Assembly (NCBI GenBank): GCA_951406725.2
Contig: OX597831.1
Location: 47,058,001 to 47,122,000 of the forward strand
Length of the DNA stretch: 64,000 nucleotides
Source: Octopus vulgaris
Lineage: Eukaryota
Direction: 5' to 3'
Part shown: positions 3,956 to 62,329 of the stretch, in pieces
Position numbering within the stretch: position 1 is the first letter of the stretch
How the letters are laid out: each line of letters starts with the position of its first letter
The notes under the pieces: generated by a model
Told to the model about the DNA's origin: nothing
The model's database searches: none
What the model saw: only the letters and a program-made list of their open reading frames with translations
Program-made: the position numbers and the translations under genes

Positions 3956-4388
3956 ATCCACCAAACCCACTCATGAGGCTTTGGTCAGCTTGGGCTCCAG
4001 TAGTCTCACACAGTCGGACTGAACTCAGACATGTGTAGTTCAGAAGCAAGCTTCTTAACCGCCATAGCCACACTGGGTTATAGCTAAATAAATTTCTCAA
4101 GAGTTCAAAATGATTTTTTAAGAGTTGCTACCCTCCTAAACCCAGTCAGGGACTATGTTCGTCACAGAGGTTATTTTTCAATTATTTTTTTTAACAGCTA
4201 AAATATGAGCAAAACGTGATTCTCTGATCTATCTAAAAAAGCAGTGACTGTAGATCAGAACTCACTTGGATTATTTGCAACCAGTCCTGCTTCTACCAGC
4301 CTGGAAAGTGGATGTAAAATGATGATAATGATGGTGATGATTTGTGGTTTTACGATGGGAGGCAAAAGTAAAGGAAACAGTTTCATAC

Positions 4389-5213
4389 CCTTTCAGAGAT
4401 AAAAATGATAACCATCGACATTTTTTAAGAACACTTGAGATCCCTTCAGGGGAAAATCCCATTGTATTTGAGATATCTAAATGAACCACATGATTGCTGT
4501 AGGAGGTGATTTTGTCAAGAATTTCATCTGACAGAGTCTTGTGACCAAAGTCCTGAAAATTGATATGTCTCCACAATGATGGATCTTTAGCTAGTTCATA
4601 CCATTTTTTACAAACTAATTCAACCGAATGTATTCGTTCAGGAATAGTGAGGTACTTAAAGATTTCTAGAAGGATACTGCTTGGTAAATTAAGAATGTGT
4701 AACGAATCCTCTGGAGATGGTACTCCATTTGTATGTTCTGAATGAACTTCAGAGTCCTGCTTTTGTTCTGATGTGTCTTGAGTAAGACTAATGACTTTAC
4801 TTGCTACAATTACTTCTGGTTCCTGTTGAGAAAACACTGTCCTACTAGGAGAGATTTTGTAGTTTGTTGACTCAGCCGAACAATGGTATTTAGAAGAATG
4901 ACATTTTGACAAAACTAAGTTACTGCAATCAGTAGAAGTTGTTTCCTGAGTCTGTGGGAGAGAAGTTAAGTGTTTGTCATGTTCATTGCTAACATTACTT
5001 TCATCTTTAGAGTTCTGTAAAGAAATTGAGACTGTATTTACACCCTTTACATTCATTGAACAAGAGTCTGAAATAGTTCTAACTGACAACTCGCCAGTCT
5101 CTACTCCTACATTGATCATCTTGTTGTTGTTTCCTCGACGTACTTTGCAAAGTTGTTCGTTATCACGAGTAGGTGACGCTGGGCATCTTTTCAGTGTTCT
5201 TGTGTGAAGTTTC
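4389..5213 (-). CDS. FBXL17: F-box/LRR protein (FBXL17-like), exon 2: low-complexity N-terminus, F-box and first LRRs
   Basis: Acceptor poly(T)-cacatgtag|G AAA CTT and donor AAA GG|gtatga. The frame is open and contains an F-box (LNLPSSILLEIFKYLTIPERIHSVELVCKKWYELAKDPSLWRHINF) followed by LRR-like SDEILDKITSYSNHVVHLDIS. It resembles FBXL17 from memory; orthology is not tested. Confidence 0.85.
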
Positions 5214-5925: not shown

Positions 5926-7068
5926 TGGAAATCAATATGTATATACATTTATGTATTTGTTTTGCAAGATTCCTGTTGTGAAATCGTGTGTTGAAACAGA
6001 TATTGTTATATTTGGGGATGGTCATTAAAAAAATTTTTTTTTTAAAGTTTGTTTTTTGGCTAATTAACCACACGCACTATATAATTGTTCTTCACTGCAA
6101 CCTTAATTATTATTCTTATTTCAGTGACCATTGCCTGAAATCTTTCAGACAACAAACACTAAAAGAATAATAATAAAGCTGCAGTAAAGAATAAGTATAC
6201 AGTGTGTGTGGTTAATTAGCCGAAAAGAAAAAAGTTACCACTCCCAAATATAACAATAAAAATATGTATACATCTATGCAAAAACAAACACAAAAGTGTA
6301 TTGTGTCTGTGTTGTTTGTTTTTGTTTTTTTATTCCTAGATGTTTACATTAAATATCTTAAAATTGTCACTCCTGAGAACAAAGCTTCTGAAATGGATAG
6401 AGAAAATTCAAAGTGTTGCTCTGGAACAATGGTTATGACATTTGTCAAGTTCACAGATGTGGGTTCAAGTCCCATGGTCAACCATCATATTTTACCCATC
6501 CATGATTTTTTTTTTTTAACTCAATATTCTAGGAGCTACTATACATAGCTTTATCTACTTCAAACTCTACCATAAAAGAAAAAAGAAGTTCACTTCTTTT
6601 GCACAGATCCTGCATTCTTGCTCTTTAAATTGGATGAAAAATAGCAGTGATATACTACCTATACATAGTCGCCTAGCCCAGCTCACCATCAAAGTGACAC
6701 CAGCAGAAGTCTGACAAAATGGAAGTAGACTCCTATATTCAAAAGTTGCTAAAGTTAGCTTACTGTTGCTCTTGTGTTGATTTCTAAGTGCCAAATCAAG
6801 AATCTGAAGAAAATGGTAAAAAGTCCATGCCGACAACATTGATAAAAGTAAATCCAGGAGAATTTCTTGATTGTTAATAAGTTTGGTTAATGCAAGTAAT
6901 GTGAAGAGCTGAAGGTTCAGATTAAAGCTTTTCAATGATGGCTGGCCTCCACGGCTGAAATGGAATGGCATGCCATCCTCAAAGGCAATGCCTACTCCAT
7001 TTTATCTGCCAGGGCCATGCAGCAGACTGACAAGTCTTTTTAGCTACAGCTGTTGTATCTATTAAAAA

Positions 7069-7441
7069 GCTGAGTGGTAAGTAGCTTGCTTACCAACCAC
7101 ATAGTTCCAGGTTCAGTCCCACTGCATAGCACCTTGGGCAAGTGTCTTCTACTATAGCCTCGGGCCAACCAAAGCCTTGCGAGTGGATTTGGTAGATGGA
7201 AACTGAAAAGAAGTCCGTTGTATATATGTATATATAAGTGTGTGTGTCTGTGTTTGTCCCCCTAACATCGCTTGACAACCGATGCTGGTGCGTTTACATC
7301 CCTATAACTTAATGGTTCGGTAAAAGAGACTGATAGAATAAGTACTAGGCTTCCAAAGACTAAGTCCTGGGCTCGATTTGCTTAACTAAAGGCGGTGCTC
7401 CAGCATGGCTGCAGTCAAATGACTGAAACAAGTAAAAGAGT
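7069..7441 (+). mobile_element. SINE family A (tRNA-derived, CORE-like), intron 1
   Basis: A-box-like ggctgtgtggtaag and B-box-like ggttcagtccc, CORE-like segment, internal microsatellite and (gtaaaaga)n tail. About 20 copies in the window, e.g. 1-185, 11623, 17245, 22040, 38409, 42411, 44049, 45854, 46467, 50260, 50975, 55783, 63315. Confidence 0.8.
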
Positions 7442-7729
7442 AATTCTTATTTGATTTAGTTGCCTGAACACAAACTGTCACCTATTTCCTTTCAGTTGTC
7501 CATTTCTCTCTCCATCCACATACATCTCACACCCTCTCAACTAAACTGAATGACCCTCAACAAACTCTCATAGATCAATAATCGTAAACTAGTTGATTAT
7601 ATTAAAAAAAAAAAAATTGGCGCTCCGTTGGTTGTGGCAAGGGTTCCAGTTGACCTGATCAACAGAACTGCCTGCTCATGAAATTAACATGCAAGTGACT
7701 GAGCACTCCACAGATGTTCTCTTTCTCTT

Positions 7730-12878: not shown

Positions 12879-13051
12879 TAAAGTTAATCCAAATATGAAA
12901 ACACAAAGAGAAAACACAACAACGCGAGGACGTGGAACAAATATAGTATTATTGGACGCTCAGGAAGGAAGGAAAGAAGGAGGGTTTAACGTTTCGAGCG
13001 GAGCTCTTCGTCAGAAACATAGGAAAAGGAAAGATCCAAAGAAGGGAAGAC
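12879..13051 (-). mobile_element. Short hammerhead-bearing repeat inserted in a (TATG)n microsatellite (Penelope-like/retrozyme-type fragment)
   Basis: Homologous to 61653-61863 in the opposite orientation. Both copies are flanked by (TATG)n. It contains a hammerhead-like motif. Confidence 0.6.
12984..13018 (-). ncRNA. Minimal type I hammerhead ribozyme motif
   Basis: Minus strand: GUUU-CUGACGA-A-GAGC ucc GCUC-GAAA-CG-UU-AAAC. Stem I is GUUU/AAAC, stem II is GAGC/GCUC, and stem III is reduced to the palindrome AACGUU. Confidence 0.65.
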
Positions 13052-13164
13052 ATGCATGTATGTATGTATGCATGTCACATGCTGTCATCTTTATGGCATT
13101 ACGCACACGAATGAAAGTAACTTAACCCTACAACAACTATATTCGTGACTAAACCAAATCCATG

Positions 13165-26199: not shown

Positions 26200-27413
26200 C
26201 TAGATATCAGTAAAGGCAGACTTAATTTCTAAAAATTCGTCACCCAGAAAATGTTCATATTGCCCTAGAAATTCGTCCATCGCCCACCTGTAAGTTGAAA
26301 TCGCCCACTTTGGGAAGCTATGGTCTATATACTTTGGTACTTGACTGGTGTCCATTATTTTCTCCCAGTATTCAAAGTCTTCATTGTATTTAATTATTTT
26401 TGACATTTGATCCTGGGTTACCAGTACACAATTATAACGCCATGGTATCCCAGTATAAGTTGCCATATTTACGGTTATTACGTCTTCCCGAGTGTCTATC
26501 TCATTGCAGAGTTCTGTATTTGTATCATCGTATAATACTACGTATTTTCTTTTTTCACAGGCCGGGAGAGGAGAAGTGTTGGGGTTGTTGTGTGTGCCCG
26601 TTTTTCTCTGTGTCGGAGGGGAGTGGAGAGGTTTGGCGTCTGTAGGGGGGAGGGTGGGGCAAAGTGGGTGTAGGTGTGTGTTGGGTGGATGTGGGGTTGG
26701 GGTCTGCATCCACATGATGTACTTTTTTCCTATTTTTTCTTTTTCTCTTTCCAACCGTTTCCCTCTAATTCCGTTCTTTGTTTGCTTCTTCTTCCATAGT
26801 ACTTGGGTTTTCTTTTGTTGTTGTTGGAGATGCGACTTCCTCCCTGCTTACGGCTTTTTCTTGGGTTTTTTTGGGCGACTGAGGACAGCCCGTTCTAATG
26901 TGGCCTTTTAGACCACACTTGTAGCAACGCGGGGTCCTGCCCTCCACTCTGACCTTGATTATCACGTCATCTATACCGACAGCTTCTACTTCCGGGGACG
27001 CTTGGATAATCATATCCAGGATCTGTCCTTGCCAATTCTTATGAGCTGTTCTTGTGACCTGGAGGACCACTATCTTATCTTAATTGCCTAGCAGTATGGC
27101 AGCTACTAGCCAGGCTACGTCAATCTCGGGTGGTATATCTTCTACCCTAACCCTGGAAGCACGTCTCCCAAGGTATATGGGTAGAAGCACCGCTTCTGTT
27201 TTTAAGAGAGGTGCCGAGTATAACCTGGCAGTAGCTAGCTCTCGGAAACGCACCTCCAGTGTTCCGTACCTCTTTCCTCTGGCAAGGTATGAAATTCCTT
27301 GCCAGATTGCTATCAAGGCTTTTTCAAGGCTCGTCCATTATTTAGACAGATTTCATTAGTTCCTCCTCGGAAGACATAAGCTCCTCGGAGGTGAGGTTTT
27401 CGTATTCCATCAT
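26200..27413 (-). mobile_element. Disrupted gag/ORF1-like gene of a non-LTR (L1/Tx1-like) element with a CCHC zinc knuckle
   Basis: Consecutive broken frames: MMEYENLTSEE..., RYGTLEVRF...RVRVEDIPPEI, KVRVEGRTPRCYKCGLKGHIRTGCP (CX2CX4HX4C), then a basic/Pro-rich tail. No ORF2 follows. Confidence 0.65.
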
Positions 27414-38248: not shown

Positions 38249-38276
<28 letters not shown>

Positions 38277-39117
38277 CGACAGGCTTCTTTCAGCTTCTGT
38301 CTACCAAATCCACTCATGAGGTTTTGGTTGGCCCAAGGCTATAGTAGAAGACACTTGCCCAAGGTGCCATGCAGTGGGACTGAACCCAGAACCATGTGGT
38401 TAGGAACCAGGAGTGGCTGTGTGGTAAATAGCTTGCTTACCAGCCTCATGGTTCCCAGTTCAGTCTCACTGCTTGGCACCTTGGGCAAGTGCCTTCTACT
38501 ATAGCCTTGGGCTGACCAAAGCCTTGTGAGTGGATTTGGCAGATAGAAACTATAAGAAACCTATCATATATATATATGTATGTATGTGTGTGTATATGTC
38601 CCCCCCCCCAATATCGCTTGACAACCGATGCTGGCGTGTTTACATCACCATAACTTAGCAGTTCAGCAAAACAGACCGATAGAATAAGTACTAGTCTTAC
38701 AAAGAATAAGTCCTGGGGTTGATTTGTTTGACTAAAGGCGGTGCTCCAGCATGGCTGCAGTCAAATGACTGAAACAAGTAAAAGAAAAAAAGAATAAAAT
38801 CATATATGTATAAATATATACACATCCTTGAAAGTAGCACCTCAGAATGACCACTGTCCAGCAATTCAATATTTTATGTGTTTATCTTAATCTTATGTAC
38901 TTCGTTTTAAATAAACTAGTTTAGAACAAATAGTTGTTTGATTTTTTTCCTCCAATGTGATATTTTTATACTTGTTTACATATCTGTATGTAGCGTTTAC
39001 TGCTCTATGTAATTTGAAGGCCCCTCAACCGGACAAGAGCCATTCCTAAAACTAATTAACAAAGAGCCTTTGTTTACATTTAGATATTCTGTGAATGGGT
39101 GTGTGTATTTGTGTGTT

Positions 39118-46084: not shown

Positions 46085-47677
46085 CGTGTGTGTATATATG
46101 TTTGTGTGTCTGTGTTTGTCCCCCCAACATTGCTTGACAACCAATGCTGGTGTGTTTACGTCCCCGTAACTTAGCGGTTCTGCAAAAGGAGACCAATAGA
46201 ATAAATACTAGGCATCCAAAGAATAAGTCCTGGGGTCAATTTGCTCGACTAAAGGCGGTGCTCCAGCATGGCCACAGTCAAATGACTAAAACAAGTAAAA
46301 GAGTAAAGAGTAAAAGAGAGTAAATTATTCTCTAATTGAAATATTAAGTACTTGCATACAACAGCAGAAGTTAAAAAAAGTAAAATGTCTCCAAAACTGA
46401 CCATAGTGTGACAGAAGCCCAGAAATAATGGGGCCAGAAAAGACAAATAATAATTATAAATAAATAGGAGTGGCTGTGTGGTAAGTAGCTTGCTTACCAG
46501 CCACATGGTTCCGGGTTCAGTCCCACTGCGTGGCACCTTGGGCAAGTGTCTTCTACTATAGCCTCGGGCCAACTAAAGCCTTGTGAGTGGATTTGGTAGA
46601 CGGAAACTGAAAGACGCCCGTCGTATATATGTATATATATCTGTGTGTGCGTGTGTGTTTGTGTGTCTGTGTTTGTCCCCCTAGCATTGCTTGACAACCG
46701 ATGCTGGTGTGTTTACGTCCCCGTCACTTAGCGGTTCGGCAAAACATACTGATAGAATAAGTACTGGGCTTAAAAAAGTATAAGTCCCGGGGTCGATTTG
46801 CTCGACTAAAAGGCGGTGCTCCAGCATGGCCGCAGTCAAATGACTGAAACAAGTAAAAGAGTAAAGAGTAAAGAGTAAATAAAAATATAGTGGAAGACAG
46901 ACAAACAAATGGTACTAAGTGAAAAAAAAAAAAAAGGGTAGACTATTGAACTGTTTTGGTAGACAGTACCAACTTTCTTCGAAAAGTTCCAGCAACTTGT
47001 ATGCATTTCTGGAATTTGAAAAATTGTTTCTGCTGAAACAGTTTGCCAGCAGTTCTGTTTTAAAGCTTAAAGAATTGAAAGCGGAATCAGAGTCTCTTCA
47101 TTGCCTCAATGAAAAGGTCAAGCTTGATCCACTTCTTTTTAAGCACAGGAAGTACTTTAGCATCGCAAAATCTGGGCCATCGTGTTTTGAATGTGATCAG
47201 GAAGGAAAGTTAGATAAAGAAGAAAACAAAACATGTATTTCATTTATTATTTTAAAAATTTGTTTTGTTCTTTTTTCTTTTTTCGCTTATTTTCTCAATG
47301 TAAGTTGTGTCAAGCTCAATGTTGGATGTGCCATAATGGTACTATCAAAGTGAATGTCTTGATTATGATTGTAGTGAAAGACATGGAACACCACAGACAG
47401 AATCATTGCAAATGACGTCAGCATCGCCTTATGGAGAGTATACATTCATACACATATTTCTGCTCTTACTACTCTGAGTTCTTCCATCATTTCAAAATCT
47501 TGCTTATAATCTGTGTGTGTGATGTCCATATATAATTTAATTTATATATATATATATATGTATGTATATACACACATATATATAAAAATAAAGATAAGAT
47601 CATTATTTAAATATCAAACATATCAAGTGGCAAGCATGGAAATAAAAACCTTCAAAGGTAATAATTATTATTAATTA

Positions 47678-47838
47678 AAATTATAATTTAGGGTATCTAA
47701 GAGATACCACCATGCTTTAAATAGCAGCCAAAATTTGACTCTAAAACCGCTTTAAAAATTTTAATGCGGTTTTAGAGTCAAATTTTGGCTGCTATTTAAA
47801 GCATGGTGGTATCTCTTAGATACCCTAAATTATAATTT
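47678..47838. repeat. 161-bp near-perfect palindrome (80-bp arms, one mismatch)
   Basis: aaattataatttagggtatctaagagatacc...ccgctttaaaa-a-ttttaatgcgg...ggtatctcttagataccctaaattataattt, between (TA)/(CA) microsatellites. Confidence 0.9.
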
Positions 47839-55464: not shown

Positions 55465-56298
55465 GGTAGTTTTTGGTTATCTCACCCCCATTAAAAAATT
55501 GGGTTATCTCCACAAGTTTTATGAGAAATATTGGTACTTTTGGTTATCTCCCACATCTTAAAACAATGCTTAACTCTCAATAAAACAAACAAAAAAACAA
55601 AAAACAAAAACAAAAGTGAAATGATGAAACGTGTTATTGAATCTGATAATATTTTTATAACAAATCATACAAAACTGATAAAGATTAATAAACATGAAAA
55701 CTGGAAGAATTAAATATCTTATTGAATCTGATAATATTTTTATAACAAATCATACTATGCCTTGGTTAACAAATCATACCATGCCATGGTTCCGGGTTCA
55801 GTCCCACTGCATGGCACCTTGGGCAAGTGTCTTCTACTATAGCCTCGGACCTTGTGAGTGGATTTGGTAGACAGAAACTGAAAGAAGCCCATCATATGTA
55901 TATATATATATAATTATACATATATATGTATGTGTGTATATGTTTGTGTGTGTGTGTGTGTTTGTTTCCCCAACATCGCTTGACAACCGATGCTGGTGTG
56001 TTTACGTCCCTGTAACTTAGCGGTTCGGCAAAAGAGACCGATAAAATAAGTACTAGGCTTACAAAGAAAAAGTCCTGGGGTCGATGTGCTCGACTAAAGG
56101 TGGTGCTCCAGCATGGCCACAGTCAAAATGACTGAAACAAGTAAAAGAATATGACTATTGAGGAGGCCAAACATCACCAATGTGTTAAAGTATTGAATCA
56201 AAAGGATCTAATTCTTTTAATCCAATCTCTCGTGGCCACATTAACTCAATTTTTTCAATGGCAATTTTTTAATGGGGGTGAGATAACCAAAAAGTACC
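55465..56298. mobile_element. MITE with 37-bp TIRs inserted in a (TCTA)n/(TCTG)n microsatellite; contains a nested SINE A
   Basis: ggtagtttttggttatctcacccccattaaaaaattg versus the reverse complement of caattttttaatgggggtgagataaccaaaaagtacc (one mismatch). The microsatellite continues on both sides. Confidence 0.75.
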
Positions 56299-56428
<130 letters not shown>

Positions 56429-56501
56429 GTCTGTCTCCTCCTCTATCTTTTCTCTCGTCAAAGACAATATTCCTTTCCTTCAGTGCTCGCTACCTTACTT
56501 C

Positions 56502-56701
56502 ATCTCAGAAAATAATTAAAAATTCACATTTTTTATCAAATTATTTTGTTATATTTGTCTATCTATCCAACTGTAAACATTCGGGGCATTTTGTTGTTTT
56601 TGTAAAATCTCAGAAAATAATTAAAAATTAAAAATTCACATTTTTTATCAAATTATTTTGTTATATTTGTCTATCTATCCAACTGTAAACAGTCGGGGCA
56701 T
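56502..56701. repeat. Tandem duplication (~90-bp units)
   Basis: atctcagaaaataattaaaaatt...ccaactgtaaaca(t/g)tcggggcat occurs twice. Confidence 0.8.
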
Positions 56702-58064
56702 GCTGGCATCGGCCACGTTCGGATAGTGCTTTTTATATGCCACTGGCACAGGCATCATAACTACTATTTCCATTGATATTTATTTCGACGTTCATGTTCA
56801 TGTTCATGTACTTGACTCAACAGGTCTCCTCAAGCACAGCGGGACGTTCTGGGATCCGGGGTACTTTGAATGGGCAGGGGCTATGTGGAACTGATGTAGG
56901 AAGCAGCCTGGGTCTTTGCAGTCACAGCATATCTCCAGAGATCTTGGTCCTTCGCCATTGCCCCAGTGAGGCCCAACGCTCTGAGGTCATGCTTGACTAC
57001 CTCATCCCCCTGATACCTTCAACTGTTTGGGAGTGGCACTTCTTCACATATATATATATATATATATATATCACCATGAGTCAAACAAGATATATTTTAT
57101 CTGAAGGCATATACATATATGTATGTTTATATACATGGGCTTTGTAGAACAAACAGAAGAACAGAACTCCATACATTAGTATACATATATACACACAACC
57201 CATGTAAATATACACACTTGTATGGGCATCTGTAAGTGTATATTTGTCCTTGTGTATGTGTGTGTGTACATATCATCATCATCATCCACTTCTCCATGTT
57301 TTGTATGGATCAGACAAAATTTGTCAAAGCAGATTATCTATGGTTGGAAGTTCTTCCTGTCCTCAACCTTCACCAGTTTCGAAGCAAGATGATATTTTCC
57401 CATAGCTAGACATGCTTTCCACAGAAGACTGGAAGCAAACAACCTCTCTTGTAAAACAATGATGATCATTTACAACCATCACATGCATACACACATACAT
57501 GAATGCACACACGCACACACACACACACACACGCACACACACACATACAAGCACACACATGCACACATGCCCACACACACATATACATGCACACGCCTTT
57601 ATACATACACACACGCACACATACACCCACAGAAACACACCCACCCACACATGCACGTATATGATGGACTTTCAGTTTCTGCCCACCAAATTCATTCACA
57701 ATGCCTTGGCTGGCCTGGAATCAGAGTAGAAAATACTTGCCCAAGGTGTTGTGCAGTGGGACTGAACCCAAACCCCTTATCCACAACAAAAAAACCCATG
57801 TTATCACATGACTTCAAATAAGCCAGTTTGAGAAGTACACGTACGTCTACACTATCGTGATACAATAGAATTACAAAAGCCTATAAGTGCTTTAATGATT
57901 TCAAGTACATCGAGTGCTTGAGTTAAGTATAACAGGCATAGCTTGACAATTGCATCTCATATGCCATCAACATTATTTGTAGCATATTCTAACAAGTCCT
58001 TGCTGTGTGGTTTAAAACTATCTTAGATGTTACATTTAAACCAGGATATATATAAACGTATATA

Positions 58065-58453
58065 TCTTTATATATAAAAGTAAGGTTGTGTGTCTGTCTC
58101 CTACGATTTAGATTCCTAACTACTCCCACATTTTGCGGTGCAGTTTAACCAAAACCAGGTATCTTATAGTCGTGATTCATATCAAGCCCTTCTGGGTATT
58201 AGCACGTGTCTACGATGAGTCTACGATTTAAAAAAAAATTTACCATAATTTTTTTTCCATTTTAATGCATTTTTTTCGCTATTATATAAGGGAAGTAACT
58301 CTCTAAAAATGTCTACGATGAGTCAATGATTTAAAAAAAAATTTACCATCATTTTTTTTCCATTTTTAATGCATTTTTTTGCTATAACTCTCTAAAAATG
58401 CTTATATAGTTATTTCCCTTACAAACCCGAGCAACGCCGGGCGATACTGCTAG
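58065..58453 (+). mobile_element. Non-autonomous Helitron
   Basis: A|TCtttatatataaaag ... cccgagcaacgccgggcgatactgCTAG|T, with an internal ~85-bp duplication. Confidence 0.75.
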
Positions 58454-58619
58454 TATATATATAAATATAAATATATATCTATATGTACGCATGTATGTAT
58501 GTATGTTATGTTTGCTGGCCACTTTATTATTATTTTTTCAAAGATAATGATAAGTTATTTGAATTCTGAATATATACATACGTACATACATACATACATA
58601 TATATATATACTAATAGTA

Positions 58620-58881
58620 ATGGTATGACAACAAAAAAATGAATGAGACCTCGATATTATGTAAATAGAGGAATGTATCTGTAATATAATATGTGACAAT
58701 TATTTGGTTGCCATAATAAAACTCCAAGTTTCGGATGTTGGGGTGGAAATCTGCTCCGGCATCTCGTCAGTTATCGAGGCAGGCAACTGACGAGATGCCA
58801 GAGCAGATTTCCGCCCCAACATCTGAAACTCAGAGTTTTATTATGGCAACCAAATAACTGTCACATATTATATTACAGATA
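58620..58881. mobile_element. Foldback element (inverted arms 58676-58881) with a hammerhead-like core in each arm
   Basis: ~97-bp imperfect arms with loop atcgaggcaggc. Minus strand has gataa-CUGACGA-gaug...cauc-c-GAAAC uugga GUU-uuauu. Flanked by (TA)n/(TACA)n. Confidence 0.65.
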
Positions 58882-59190
58882 TATATATATAAAAGAGTGT
58901 ATAAAGATTTATGCACAGTGAGGAGACCCTTGATTGGACTCCTTACATGCTAAAAAGGGCAGTCAAAGCTCAAACCACGAGAAAAAGAATTCATAAGGCA
59001 CACTGTTCATGACATAGTGTGAACAAAAAATGAATTAGTTAATCCTGTACTCAAGTTTCACTTTTAATAGCCAAATAAATTAATTTTAATTTATTACCCT
59101 CATATTTGGGTAAGTGTGTTCTACTATAGCCTCAGGCCAACCAAAGCTTTGTGAGTGGATTTGATAGATGGAAAATGAAAGAAGCCCGTC

Positions 59191-59230
<40 letters not shown>

Positions 59231-59309
59231 CCATTGATGTGGATGTATATGTATACTCTAGTATATATATTTGATTATCTGTAACCTTATGTGCATGTAT
59301 ATTATTATA

Positions 59310-59367
<58 letters not shown>

Positions 59368-59368
<1 letters not shown>

Positions 59369-59827
59369 ACAATATGTTACATTACTCGGTAGTCAAGATA
59401 AAACTCTGAGTTTCAGATGCCGAAGTGGAAATCCACAACACTATCTCTTCGGTTATCTGGCTATTTGAAAACGTTATGAAAAAATACCGTTAAAAATGAA
59501 GGGAAATTACTCTGTTATAACTCTGCTTTGCCTGCGTACTTATACATCGCTCGCATTTTTCGTCATAAAAATGCGAGCGATGTATAAGTACGCAGGCAAA
59601 GCAGAGTTATAACAGAGTAATTTCCCTTCATTTTTAACGGTATTTTTTCATAACGTTTTCAAATAGCCAGATAACCGAAGAGATGGTGTTGTGGATTTCC
59701 ACTTCGGCATCTGAAACTCAGAGTTTTATCTTGACTACCGAGTAATGTAACATATTGTATAGATAAATTTCCTCTATTTACATAATATTGAGGTCTCTTT
59801 CTTTCTTTTGTTATCTTACCGTTTTAT

Positions 59828-59829
<2 letters not shown>
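59368..59829. mobile_element. Foldback element: 193-bp arms (59368-59560, 59567-59759), 6-nt loop, plus a unique tail; same family as 58620-58881
   Basis: One arm mismatch seen. Tail 59761-59820 is the reverse-complement homologue of 58623-58680. Embedded in (TA)n on both sides. Confidence 0.8.
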
Positions 59830-59878
<49 letters not shown>

Positions 59879-60264
59879 CACTTATATATATATATATTCT
59901 TGTGTATGTGTATTTTGTTTCATATTTATATTTTTATAATTGTAACTCAATACATCTGACTAATATAGGCACAATGAGAAACCTTTATCCACAGGCTGAA
60001 ACACTGAAACAGTTGTAAGATCCATTTTATATGTATTATTTTTATGGTATTATCTTACTTATTGATGTATATTGTTTTATTCTGTTGGATTTGGATGTTT
60101 CTATTTAAGTAGTTAATAAATAATATGAATTGGTATTATCTGTAAGTCGATGATTGAAAGGAATCTGTTCCTCCATTTTCTTATTTGTATATATATATAT
60201 ATATATACTTACTTACTTGGAAATGGATGTGTGACATTCAATTAAATAATAATAATAAATAATA

Positions 60265-60314
<50 letters not shown>

Positions 60315-61652
60315 TAGATAGATAGATAGGTAGATAAATAGATATAGATATATATGTATGTATATATATATATAAATATATATACATACATACATACATA
60401 CACATATATTATTTATTAATGTATTATATATATATGCATGTATGTATATATTTGCGTGTCTGTGTTTGTCCCCCCACCATCACTTGACAACAGTTGTTGG
60501 TGAGTTTACATACACATAACTTAGCAGTTTAGCAAAAGAGACTGACAGAATAAGTACTAAGCTTACAAAGAATGAGTCCTGGGGTCGATTTGTTTGACTA
60601 AAGGTGGTGCTCCAGCATGGCCGCTGTCTAATGACAGAAAGAAATAAAAGAATAAGAGAATATGTAATATATATGAGAAGTACATGTATTTCTATGCTAT
60701 CATAATACAGCAGTTTTACAAAAGCCTTAATGTGTCTCTATGATTTCTAGTGCTACATCTAGTACTTGGTATAAGTAAGATAGTTATAATTTGTCAATTG
60801 CATCTTAGCTGCAATTAACATAATTTGTAATCCTAAAATTTACTTGTTGTATGGTTTAAAAACATTTAAACAAAGATATCATCATCATCATCATCATCAT
60901 CATCGTTTAACGTCCGCTTTCCACGCTAGCATGGGTTGGACAATTTGACTGAGGTCTGGCGAACCAGATGGCTGCACCAGACTCCAATCTGATCTGGCAG
61001 AGTTTCTCCAGCTGGATGCCCTTCCTAATGCCAACCACTCCAAGAGTGTAGTGGGTGCTTTTACATGCCAACAGCACGAGGGTCAGTCAGGCGGTACTGG
61101 CAACGGCCACGCTCAAATGGTGTTTTTCACATGCCACCTGCACAGGAGTCAGTCTAGCGGCACTGGCAACGACCTCGCTTGAATGTTTTCTCACGGGCCA
61201 CCAGCACAAGTGCTAGTAAGGCGACGCAGGTAATGATCACACTCAAATGGTGTTTTTAATGTGCCATCGGCACAGCGGCCAGCTTGTTGCTCTGGCAATG
61301 ATATCACTGGTATGATACTCTTAGCGCTCCACTAGCACGGATGTATGTATGTAAGCATGTCTCTTCTATTTTTTAATAATAAATCTTTCACTGAGGAGGG
61401 AGCTGATTTCCAACAAAGATACAAGGCTCTATCTTTGGGATGTAATTAACACAGACAAATTCACATTTGGGACTTGAGAAAAGCCTTGCATATTTTTACT
61501 GTTCCACTTGCAGATTGCACTTGTAATGTACAAATCAGCCAGTCAGTTTCTCTTTCTGAAAATCCCTGTCTATCCAGATTCTCCTTTAAGCATTTACTAA
61601 TAACATAGTTTGGATATAAAAGCTGTATGTATGTATGTATGTATGTATGTAT

Positions 61653-61863
61653 GTGACTGCGTATGTACCGTTGGCCATTTTTTTTTCCTCCGTCTTCCCT
61701 TCTTTGGATCTTTCCTTTTCCTATGAATCTGATGAAGATCTCCGCTCGAAACTTTAAACCCTCCTTCTTTTCTTCTTTCCTGAGTGTCCAATAATACTAT
61801 ACTTGTTCCACGTCCTCACGTTGTTGTGTTTTCTCTTTGTGTTTTCATGTTTGGATTAACTTT
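61653..61863 (+). mobile_element. Second copy of the (TATG)n-associated hammerhead repeat, with a degenerate ribozyme
   Basis: CUGAUGA-A-GAUC ucc GCUC-GAAAC-UUU-AAAC at ~61729-61759. Homologous to 12879-13051. Confidence 0.6.
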
Positions 61864-61901
61864 ATGTATGTATGTACATACATATGTATGTATGTACATA
61901 C

Positions 61902-61932
<31 letters not shown>

Positions 61933-62329
61933 TGTATGTATACATGCATGCATTCATGTAATATAATGTAATGTTTTTGCTGTAGATTGCTCTCCTGGGG
62001 TATATGTGAAATACTGATATTCAGGGTCGGTGTTAGGAAGAGCAGGGTCCAGTTAGAGAATTGTCAGTGGGACCCTCTACACTATGAAAGTTGAGGATTG
62101 ATGTTTTATGCTTCTTGTAGTATGCCTGTCCCAGCCAAAAAGTGTTGAGGGCTTGAGGCTCCACCATTTAACCACAATGATATACTAAAGATTCATCTTA
62201 GCATCCTCCATTTGAGCATGTGTGCAGGGCCCTCACATGGCATAAGGGCCCAAATTTGAACAAATCTGTCTAATTGGCTTAAAATCGGCCCTGCCAATAT
62301 TTTGGTCATCTCTTCAACTTGCCTCAATT

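Follow-up and report, generated by a model that had tools for sequence, protein, structure and literature searches.

Two inverted, hammerhead-bearing fold-backs in octopus TA repeats as likely truncated ends of a Penelope-like retroelement

What kind of element leaves a near-perfect hairpin inside a TA microsatellite, with a hammerhead-like motif in its arms and a tail on one side? The question is raised by two fold-backs, E1 and E2, that lie 480 nt apart in the same stretch of Octopus vulgaris DNA (64,000 nucleotides, here called the window). An earlier note, made from the sequence letters, had described two related elements in opposite orientation within (TA)n, with long inverted repeats and one-sided tails, and this description was borne out. 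An inverted-repeat alignment resolved E1 into two 97-bp arms (58676-58772 and 58785-58881) around a 12-nt loop (58773-58784); the arms differ at 6 of 97 bp, all by transitions, three of them at CpG. E2 has 193-bp arms (59368-59560 and 59567-59759) with one mismatch in 193 bp, at 59442/59685, and a 6-nt loop (59561-59566) closed by T5/A5. Each element bears one tail, and the two run in opposite directions: 65 nt on the left side only in E1 (58611-58675, minus strand) and 64 nt on the right side only in E2 (59766-59829, plus strand). The flanks of E1 are (TACA)n(TA)5 and (TA)6, and those of E2 exceed 20 TA units on either side; both ends of each element thus sit inside TA repeats, which would hide any target-site duplication. 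Such duplications are also hard to recognise in the microsatellite targets of published Penelope-like elements, or PLEs (PMC8557442). BLAST across the window found no third copy of E1 or E2.

Read in the sense of the hammerhead, each element consists of a tail-bearing arm and a short arm placed head to head, with both 3' ends directed outward into (TA)n. The tail-bearing arm of E1 (58676-58772, minus strand) is a 5'-truncated end with a type I hammerhead-like motif, its core CUGACGA at 58770-58764 and its predicted cleavage site, H17, at 58720; its tail is followed by (TA)5(TACA)n. The short arm (58785-58881, plus strand) has its CUGACGA core at 58787 and stops at the tail boundary, followed by (TA)6. 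In E2, the tail-bearing arm (59567-59765, plus strand) begins with about 100 nt of upstream sequence, probably 3' UTR, and continues through the motif at 59664-59737 to the tail and (TA)n, while the short arm (59364-59560, minus strand; core CCGAAGA at 59452) stops at the tail boundary with one TA unit missing and then enters (TA)n. Both short arms terminate at an identical AGATA, 40 nt 3' of H17, and the tail of E2 ends 104 nt past H17, with that of E1 ending at the matching place. The 5' ends are unlike: the fold point lies at the 5' edge of stem I in E1 and about 100 nt farther upstream in E2. The two tails are about 78% alike over aligned 20-column blocks (16/20, 16/20 and 15/20), and their folds compared with shuffles revealed no significant structure (z -0.51 and +1.57).

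Contigs from four public sequencing runs, belonging to four studies, were mapped to one E2 arm with its tail (59564-59829, 266 nt). Three DNA runs (X1, X4 and X12) yielded 4521, 3108 and 1821 contigs, respectively, and the fourth (X6, possibly an RNA run) yielded 2. Words of E2 were present at 70-90% in 20 of the 24 listed runs, which cover 12 coded organism labels and 15 studies, or 14 without the best-matching run, a possible source of the window DNA. RNA runs were absent from the listed carriers, which is neutral with respect to expression. Exact family words gave no match in metagenome, genome and viral contig collections. X1, X4 and X12 contain 52, 55 and 38 contigs, respectively, in which TA repeats follow the tail end. 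TA repeats likewise follow the short end in two X12 contigs (at 59765) and in the consensus built from 39 E1-like loose ends in X1. These contig numbers and recurrent ends point to an abundant family whose 3' end is fixed at two places. Summed contig depth climbs from the 5' end to the hammerhead and tail, as 5' truncation predicts, but contig depth cannot rank parts or give copy number.

The near perfection of the E2 arms might raise the suspicion that the palindromes are assembly or library artefacts (fold-back chimeras), and no contig spans a whole palindrome, as the reference held a single arm and Logan contigs cannot resolve hairpins. We regard this explanation as very improbable: the E1 arms differ at six places in a pattern of CpG decay, the short arms of both elements end at a common site followed by (TA)n, and two other runs contain opposite-strand joints between the 5' edge of the hammerhead and the tail boundary, at 59656/59765 in X12 and 59669/59761 in X4 (one contig each).

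The architecture points to PLEs. In this group, insertions are described as highly 5' truncated, with an adjacent inverted and likewise 5'-truncated copy and a 30-40-bp tail at one end, and (TA)n is the target of almost all Hydra-clade families (Craig et al. 2021, PMC8557442); pLTRs in inverted arrangement, tailed and joined at palindromes, have also been described in PLEs (Arkhipova et al. 2013, PMC3846280). E1 and E2 share with the insertion unit of EN+ PLEs the head-to-head inverted 5'-truncated copies, the one-sided tail, the hammerhead near the 3' end and the microsatellite target, and differ from it in having no ORF and in a tail of 64-65 nt rather than the published 30-40 bp (PMC8557442, PMC11167929). 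Since this is the published unit, there is nothing new in the architecture itself. We therefore consider it likely that E1 and E2 represent the 3' end of a Penelope-like retroelement of octopus, probably a Hydra-clade one, and that each insertion placed two 5'-truncated copies head to head in (TA)n with their 3' ends outward. The earlier suggestion of a Penelope-like link, with microsatellite targeting and hairpins formed during integration, accordingly gains support from the published insertion unit, the TA flanks and a match in stem III described below.

The hammerhead layout, which the earlier note had placed in both arms, stood in large part. The CYGANGA...GAAA core and the base of stem II are present in all four arms and the full type I layout in three; the E1 short arm is left with 2 bp of stem I because the fold point falls within that stem. 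A loose scan for core plus stem II returned five matches in the window, four of which are the four arms. A fuller type I descriptor returned four, namely three of the arms and an unrelated motif at 13014 on the minus strand, against a chance mean of 0.04 per 64-kb window in 200 Markov simulations; the arms are not independent, so these matches amount to evidence from two elements. The model scan that had been proposed came out negative, with no hammerhead model among the 91 Rfam matches at E<=10 in 56000-62000, and the Rfam miRNA matches were hairpin or microsatellite noise below gathering scores.

In E2, stem I comprises 6 bp, a bulged U and a further helix (about 11 bp, extended and bulged), the core occupies 59675-59681 of the tail-bearing arm, and stem II is GAUG/CAUC lengthened by an interrupted hairpin. 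An extra pyrimidine at 59712 precedes the GAAA box (59713-59716), which is followed by a palindromic stem III of 3 bp with a 1-nt loop and by the site GUU, with predicted H17 at 59725. The stem III palindrome, the GUU site and the GAAAC layout had been pointed out before; the palindrome and GUU were recovered, but the palindrome carries two changes in the E1 tail arm, and the extra pyrimidine, which lies between CAUC and GAAA in all four arms, had gone unmentioned. This base is T or C (C in 109, 100 and 89 contigs) and is located 3' of stem II, not between A9 and G10.1; in an alternative register, C59711 is bulged and G10.1 pairs with the pyrimidine. E1 has the consensus core C3 U4 G5 A6 N7 G8 A9 / G12 A13 A14 A15.1 / U16.1 H17; in E2, both arms carry U4C. 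At 59676, C>T stays below the 5% needed for a row in any of the three DNA runs, though an absent row is no proof. U4C is a natural hammerhead variant with lower activity in vitro (PMC3088659). The palindromic stem III would allow dimers, with computed self-duplexes of -11.8 and -11.2 kcal/mol. The hammerhead regions fold slightly better than shuffles (z -1.77 and -1.56), and the minimum-free-energy structure is not the hammerhead.

Variation within the family bears on whether the stems are kept. Among ten substitutions at a frequency of at least 5% in the DNA runs, counted after exclusion of two variant rows (59745 and 59749) from a single X6 contig, none falls in the core and none breaks a stem pair. 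A stem I pair is retained as G-U by one of them, and three convert stem I mismatches to pairs; of the others, one lies in the internal loop of stem II, one is the T/C position preceding GAAA, and four lie outside the motif. Two of the three created pairs fall in distal stem I positions that were added after the variants had been inspected, and the variants are unphased. Compared by eye, two pairs of the distal stem I differ between E1 and E2, one by a double change (A-U against U-A) and the other as G-C against G-U. Taken at the level of sequence, these are signs of stem conservation in the hammerhead layout, including an extended stem I that would be preserved by common variants. The earlier note had stated that the stem-closing bases were kept between the two copies while the stem II loop diverged; in the E2 short arm, a G>A change cuts the stem II base to 3 bp.

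The two strands of stem II fold unequally. In E1 (58733-58763 and 58794-58824), the antisense strand forms a 13-bp hairpin of -17 kcal/mol and the hammerhead strand reaches only -2.8/-3.9; in E2 the order is reversed, with -13.7 for the hammerhead strand and -6.8 for the antisense strand. Either G/U bias or a signal for the antisense template may underlie this asymmetry.

An ordinary MITE or foldback DNA transposon with a TA target-site duplication, resembling a hammerhead by chance, would likewise present long inverted repeats in a TA context with no coding sequence and with Rfam silent. The earlier note had named fixed terminal inverted repeats with TA duplications as the mark of such an element; the locus instead displays a one-sided tail and unequal arms of 97 and 193 bp with differing fold points, and so neither fixed terminal repeats nor a uniform length. 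Chance resemblance also fits poorly with three descriptor matches in the arms of the two (non-independent) elements at the simulated rate, with variants that preserve the stems and with a stem III that exactly matches a Hydra-clade hammerhead. We find a MITE scarcely credible.

The PLE reading was compared with published hammerheads. File S2 of Craig et al. 2021 (PMC8557442) has 26 rows for hammerheads of the Hydra clade, and the short stem III begins with 'ac' in every one; actc-N-gagt occurs in five of the 26, and tgaa stands in the core column of 14. Penelope-3_HM agrees letter for letter with the E1/E2 family over stem III and the cleavage site (tgaa actc a gagt t), and Penelope-13_HM likewise has an inverted 5'-truncated copy with a hammerhead on both strands (PMC8557442). 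The clade occurs in Octopus, as Hydra-1_Obim of O. bimaculoides (PMC8557442), which like the present family has G-AUG after the core. Identity of the family with Hydra-1_Obim was considered and rejected, as the hammerhead and 3' end differ by eye, and a word search with eight family words gave no match in the Craig et al. 2021 supplement. Relative to Hydra-clade hammerheads, E1 and E2 have a longer stem II, U4C in the E2 type, and an extra pyrimidine on the 3' side only, a feature of none of the 26 Hydra rows in File S2. The Hydra-like traits of the family, insertion into (TA)n and a hammerhead with a short palindromic stem III, are supportive of that clade but not exclusive to it. The placement of the hammerhead within a short 3' region is a further point in common with Hydra-clade PLEs. 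Among the PLE families of O. vulgaris, 31 are given as recently active in a 2026 annotation (PMC13282606).

The minimal PLE hammerheads of Cervera and De la Pena (2014, PMC4209133) share with E1 and E2 the type I topology, the core boxes, a G10.1-C11.1 pair (in one register), the palindromic stem III and GUU. E1 and E2 differ from them in having no extra base after A9, in having one before G12, and in a bulged stem I of about 11 bp; AGAAA occurs in one of the 56 motifs of Fig. S3 of that paper. Dual minimal hammerheads on opposite strands, 100-700 bp apart, are reported there, with activity that is low and dimer-dependent. The points that appear new are small: the long tail, the extended stem I, the pyrimidine added directly 5' of GAAA and the U4C of E2-type elements. 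Our literature search found no paper on an octopus or cephalopod hammerhead of this family; earlier work on PLE hammerhead variants or O. vulgaris repeat libraries may cover it, and novelty of the variant is unproven. If the predicted variant cleaves, the core consensus would widen and the miss by the Rfam models would be explained.

How such a hairpin forms is a separate question, and the origin of inverted PLE insertions with a one-sided tail has been called unresolved (Craig et al. 2021, PMC8557442). In vitro, the protein of an Anolis PLE nicks and extends both strands and initiates reverse transcription at two internal positions, between which the tail lies; it also assists the ribozyme (Frangieh et al. 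2024, PMC11167929). This Poseidon element (PAc) resembles E1 and E2 in its two fixed 3' ends around a tail, its AT-rich target and an ATG at the start of stem II (PMC11167929), and E1 and E2 differ from it in their longer tail and in the early stop of the ATG frame. Twin priming is the most economical model for the two fold-backs, and we infer all of its steps. The GIY-YIG/RT protein of the element would nick both strands of a TA-rich target. Each nicked strand would then serve as primer for copying the element RNA: the cDNA begun at the far start site would include the tail, and that begun at the near site, which lies 64-65 nt further in, would lack it. Both cDNAs would end early, anneal through a few bases of inverted microhomology and be filled in, so that the outcome would be a palindrome with a small loop and a tail on one side. 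The hammerhead would travel as the usual 3' passenger of PLEs, of a type thought to act as a dimer. Twin priming would account for the outward 3' ends, the one-sided tail and the small loop, and it permits a loop that is native to either arm.

The junctions bear on this last point. In E1, the minus strand of the loop provides the 5' strand of stem I to the tail-bearing arm, as judged by homology to E2 59664-59672 and by pairing with the 3' strand, which makes the loop native to that arm; a microhomology of 2-3 bp at this junction is possible. In E2, record 25 of X6 (one contig, depth 5, from the possible source of the window DNA) is identical to 59567-59829 and carries 17 loose 5' letters, in which the E2 loop appears in short-arm orientation behind a T5 run, with farther letters that differ from the arm in the window. 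If these loose letters are native upstream sequence, the record suggests that the E2 junction is a 5-bp microhomology with a loop native to the short arm. A loop apparently native to the tail-bearing arm in E1 and to the short arm in E2 would favour the joining of two cDNAs over snap-back.

The rival from the same PLE origin is snap-back, by which one cDNA folds at a short inverted repeat and copies itself, or self-priming takes place on an antisense template, as already proposed by Arkhipova et al. 2013 (PMC3846280). It would leave arms near-identical at insertion, as seen in E2 (one mismatch in 193 bp) and in the E1 transitions, half of them at CpG, and small loops closed by short inverted matches. 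The E2 arms also have the identical letter at all nine polymorphic sites inside the arm, which fits snap-back as well as two cDNAs from one source. It gives, however, no account of a copied arm that stops at a fixed site 64-65 nt before the tail end and is joined there to (TA)n, in E1, in E2 and in public contigs, and, going by one contig, the loop of E2 seems to belong to the short arm. We therefore think snap-back rather unlikely.

Returning to the origin of the elements as truncated PLE ends, the parent itself would be expected to encode protein. Pfam found no RT or GIY-YIG domain in 122 window ORFs (120 from a set of at least 198 that were of high complexity and 55 aa or longer, plus two others), so the linked GIY-YIG and RT reading frame for which the earlier note had proposed to look did not turn up in this set. 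In the Anolis PLE, the ORF begins at stem II (PMC11167929). The ATG at the start of stem II in E1 (58762-58700, minus strand) and E2 (59683-59745, plus strand) opens a frame of 20 codons that ends at the same stop place in both, and we set it aside as probably not the ORF start. That E1 and E2 are 5'-truncated ends of a coding PLE is a simpler reading than a non-coding family.

A dedicated non-autonomous family of about 300 nt, SINE- or retrozyme-like, might nevertheless have its own transcript, be mobilised in trans by a PLE and use the variant hammerhead to define its RNA end. Its great abundance in public runs would fit, as would two diverged subfamilies that share tail and motif and differ inside stem II. 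The fold-back of E1 lies at the 5' edge of stem I, and heterogeneous loose letters begin before 59666, the same edge, in 19 contigs of X1 and 13 of X4; such loose ends could equally reflect subfamily divergence. Animal retrozymes have been argued to derive from PLEs, and non-LTR retrozymes are defined by two or more hammerhead-bearing units in head-to-tail succession (bioRxiv 10.64898/2026.07.22.740005). E1 and E2 resemble these retrozymes in being short, non-coding and PLE-related with a type I hammerhead, but they form inverted pairs, not tandems: no head-to-tail direct-repeat units were detected in 57000-61500 or by window BLAST, which does not sustain the label 'retrozyme-type' given earlier. 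The 5' ends also vary, E2 extending about 100 nt farther 5' than E1. We judge a dedicated family decidedly unlikely.

Other features of the window are recorded here in their own right. An unrelated PLE-like 3' end at 12881-13060 (minus strand; core at 13014) has a textbook minimal hammerhead with an extra A after A9, G10.1-C11.1, no stem III and a GUU site, and is flanked by (TACA)n with no inverted copy. A third fold-back, at 47583-47838, adjoins (TA)n; its 73-bp arms enclose a loop of about 13 nt, an extension of about 95 nt is present on one side, and there is no hammerhead core. It may represent the 3' end of a PLE that lacks a hammerhead, for example a Naiad, and four of its short words gave no match in the Craig et al. 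2021 supplement. Older imperfect fold-backs lie at 6053-6226 and 38258-38585 (79% alike), the latter apparently assembled from fragments, in inverted orientation, of a repeat with further copies in the window, for example near 7070-7443. Direct repeats at 57829-58017 and 60674-60861, about 76% alike and 2.85 kb apart, bracket both E1 and E2. Overlapping ORFs of 215 and 104 aa at 26203-27079 (minus strand), one with a weak zinc-knuckle match (E 0.006), are perhaps a LINE ORF1 remnant. Three minus-strand exons (9955-9917, 5212-4388 and 366-253) of an F-box/LRR-repeat protein 17-like gene are 97-100% identical to O. sinensis and O. vulgaris proteins, with a 100% match to both in exon 4388-5212, which identifies the host genus as Octopus; E1 and E2 lie about 49 kb upstream of its first coding exon.

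What would a transcript of such a hairpin do? Either strand would contain the ribozyme and its antisense, as the earlier note had remarked, but the computed arm-arm duplex of E2 (-351 and -347 kcal/mol) dwarfs the hammerhead fold (-15.4 kcal/mol), so the ribozyme would be sequestered. On these folding models, the hammerhead in the genomic copies of E1 and E2 is probably inert. Octopus has an exceptional load of near-perfect dsRNA and of hyper-editing (PMC5625713), and an siRNA or ADAR role of E1/E2-type hairpins is plausible there.

A far more ambitious reading joins these strands. A very abundant and still-selected octopus family would carry a new hammerhead core variant, with an extra pyrimidine before G12, U4C in one subfamily and a bulged stem I of about 11 bp. 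Cleavage would be carried out by a dimer with the help of a protein. The fold-backs of the family, in their thousands, would record twin-primed integration, readable from loop polarity and microhomology, and would be a major source of the near-perfect dsRNA behind the very high level of A-to-I hyper-editing in octopus. We hold this to be unlikely.

As two loci, E1 and E2 matter little and are retroelement scars. The family to which they belong provides a large natural data set for how PLEs form inverted insertions with a one-sided tail, and a count of loop polarity and of microhomology at the junctions across its thousands of copies would tell the joining of two cDNAs from snap-back. For the octopus, self-contained hairpins of this type would be candidate editing substrates, like the palindromic Harbinger repeat in frog.
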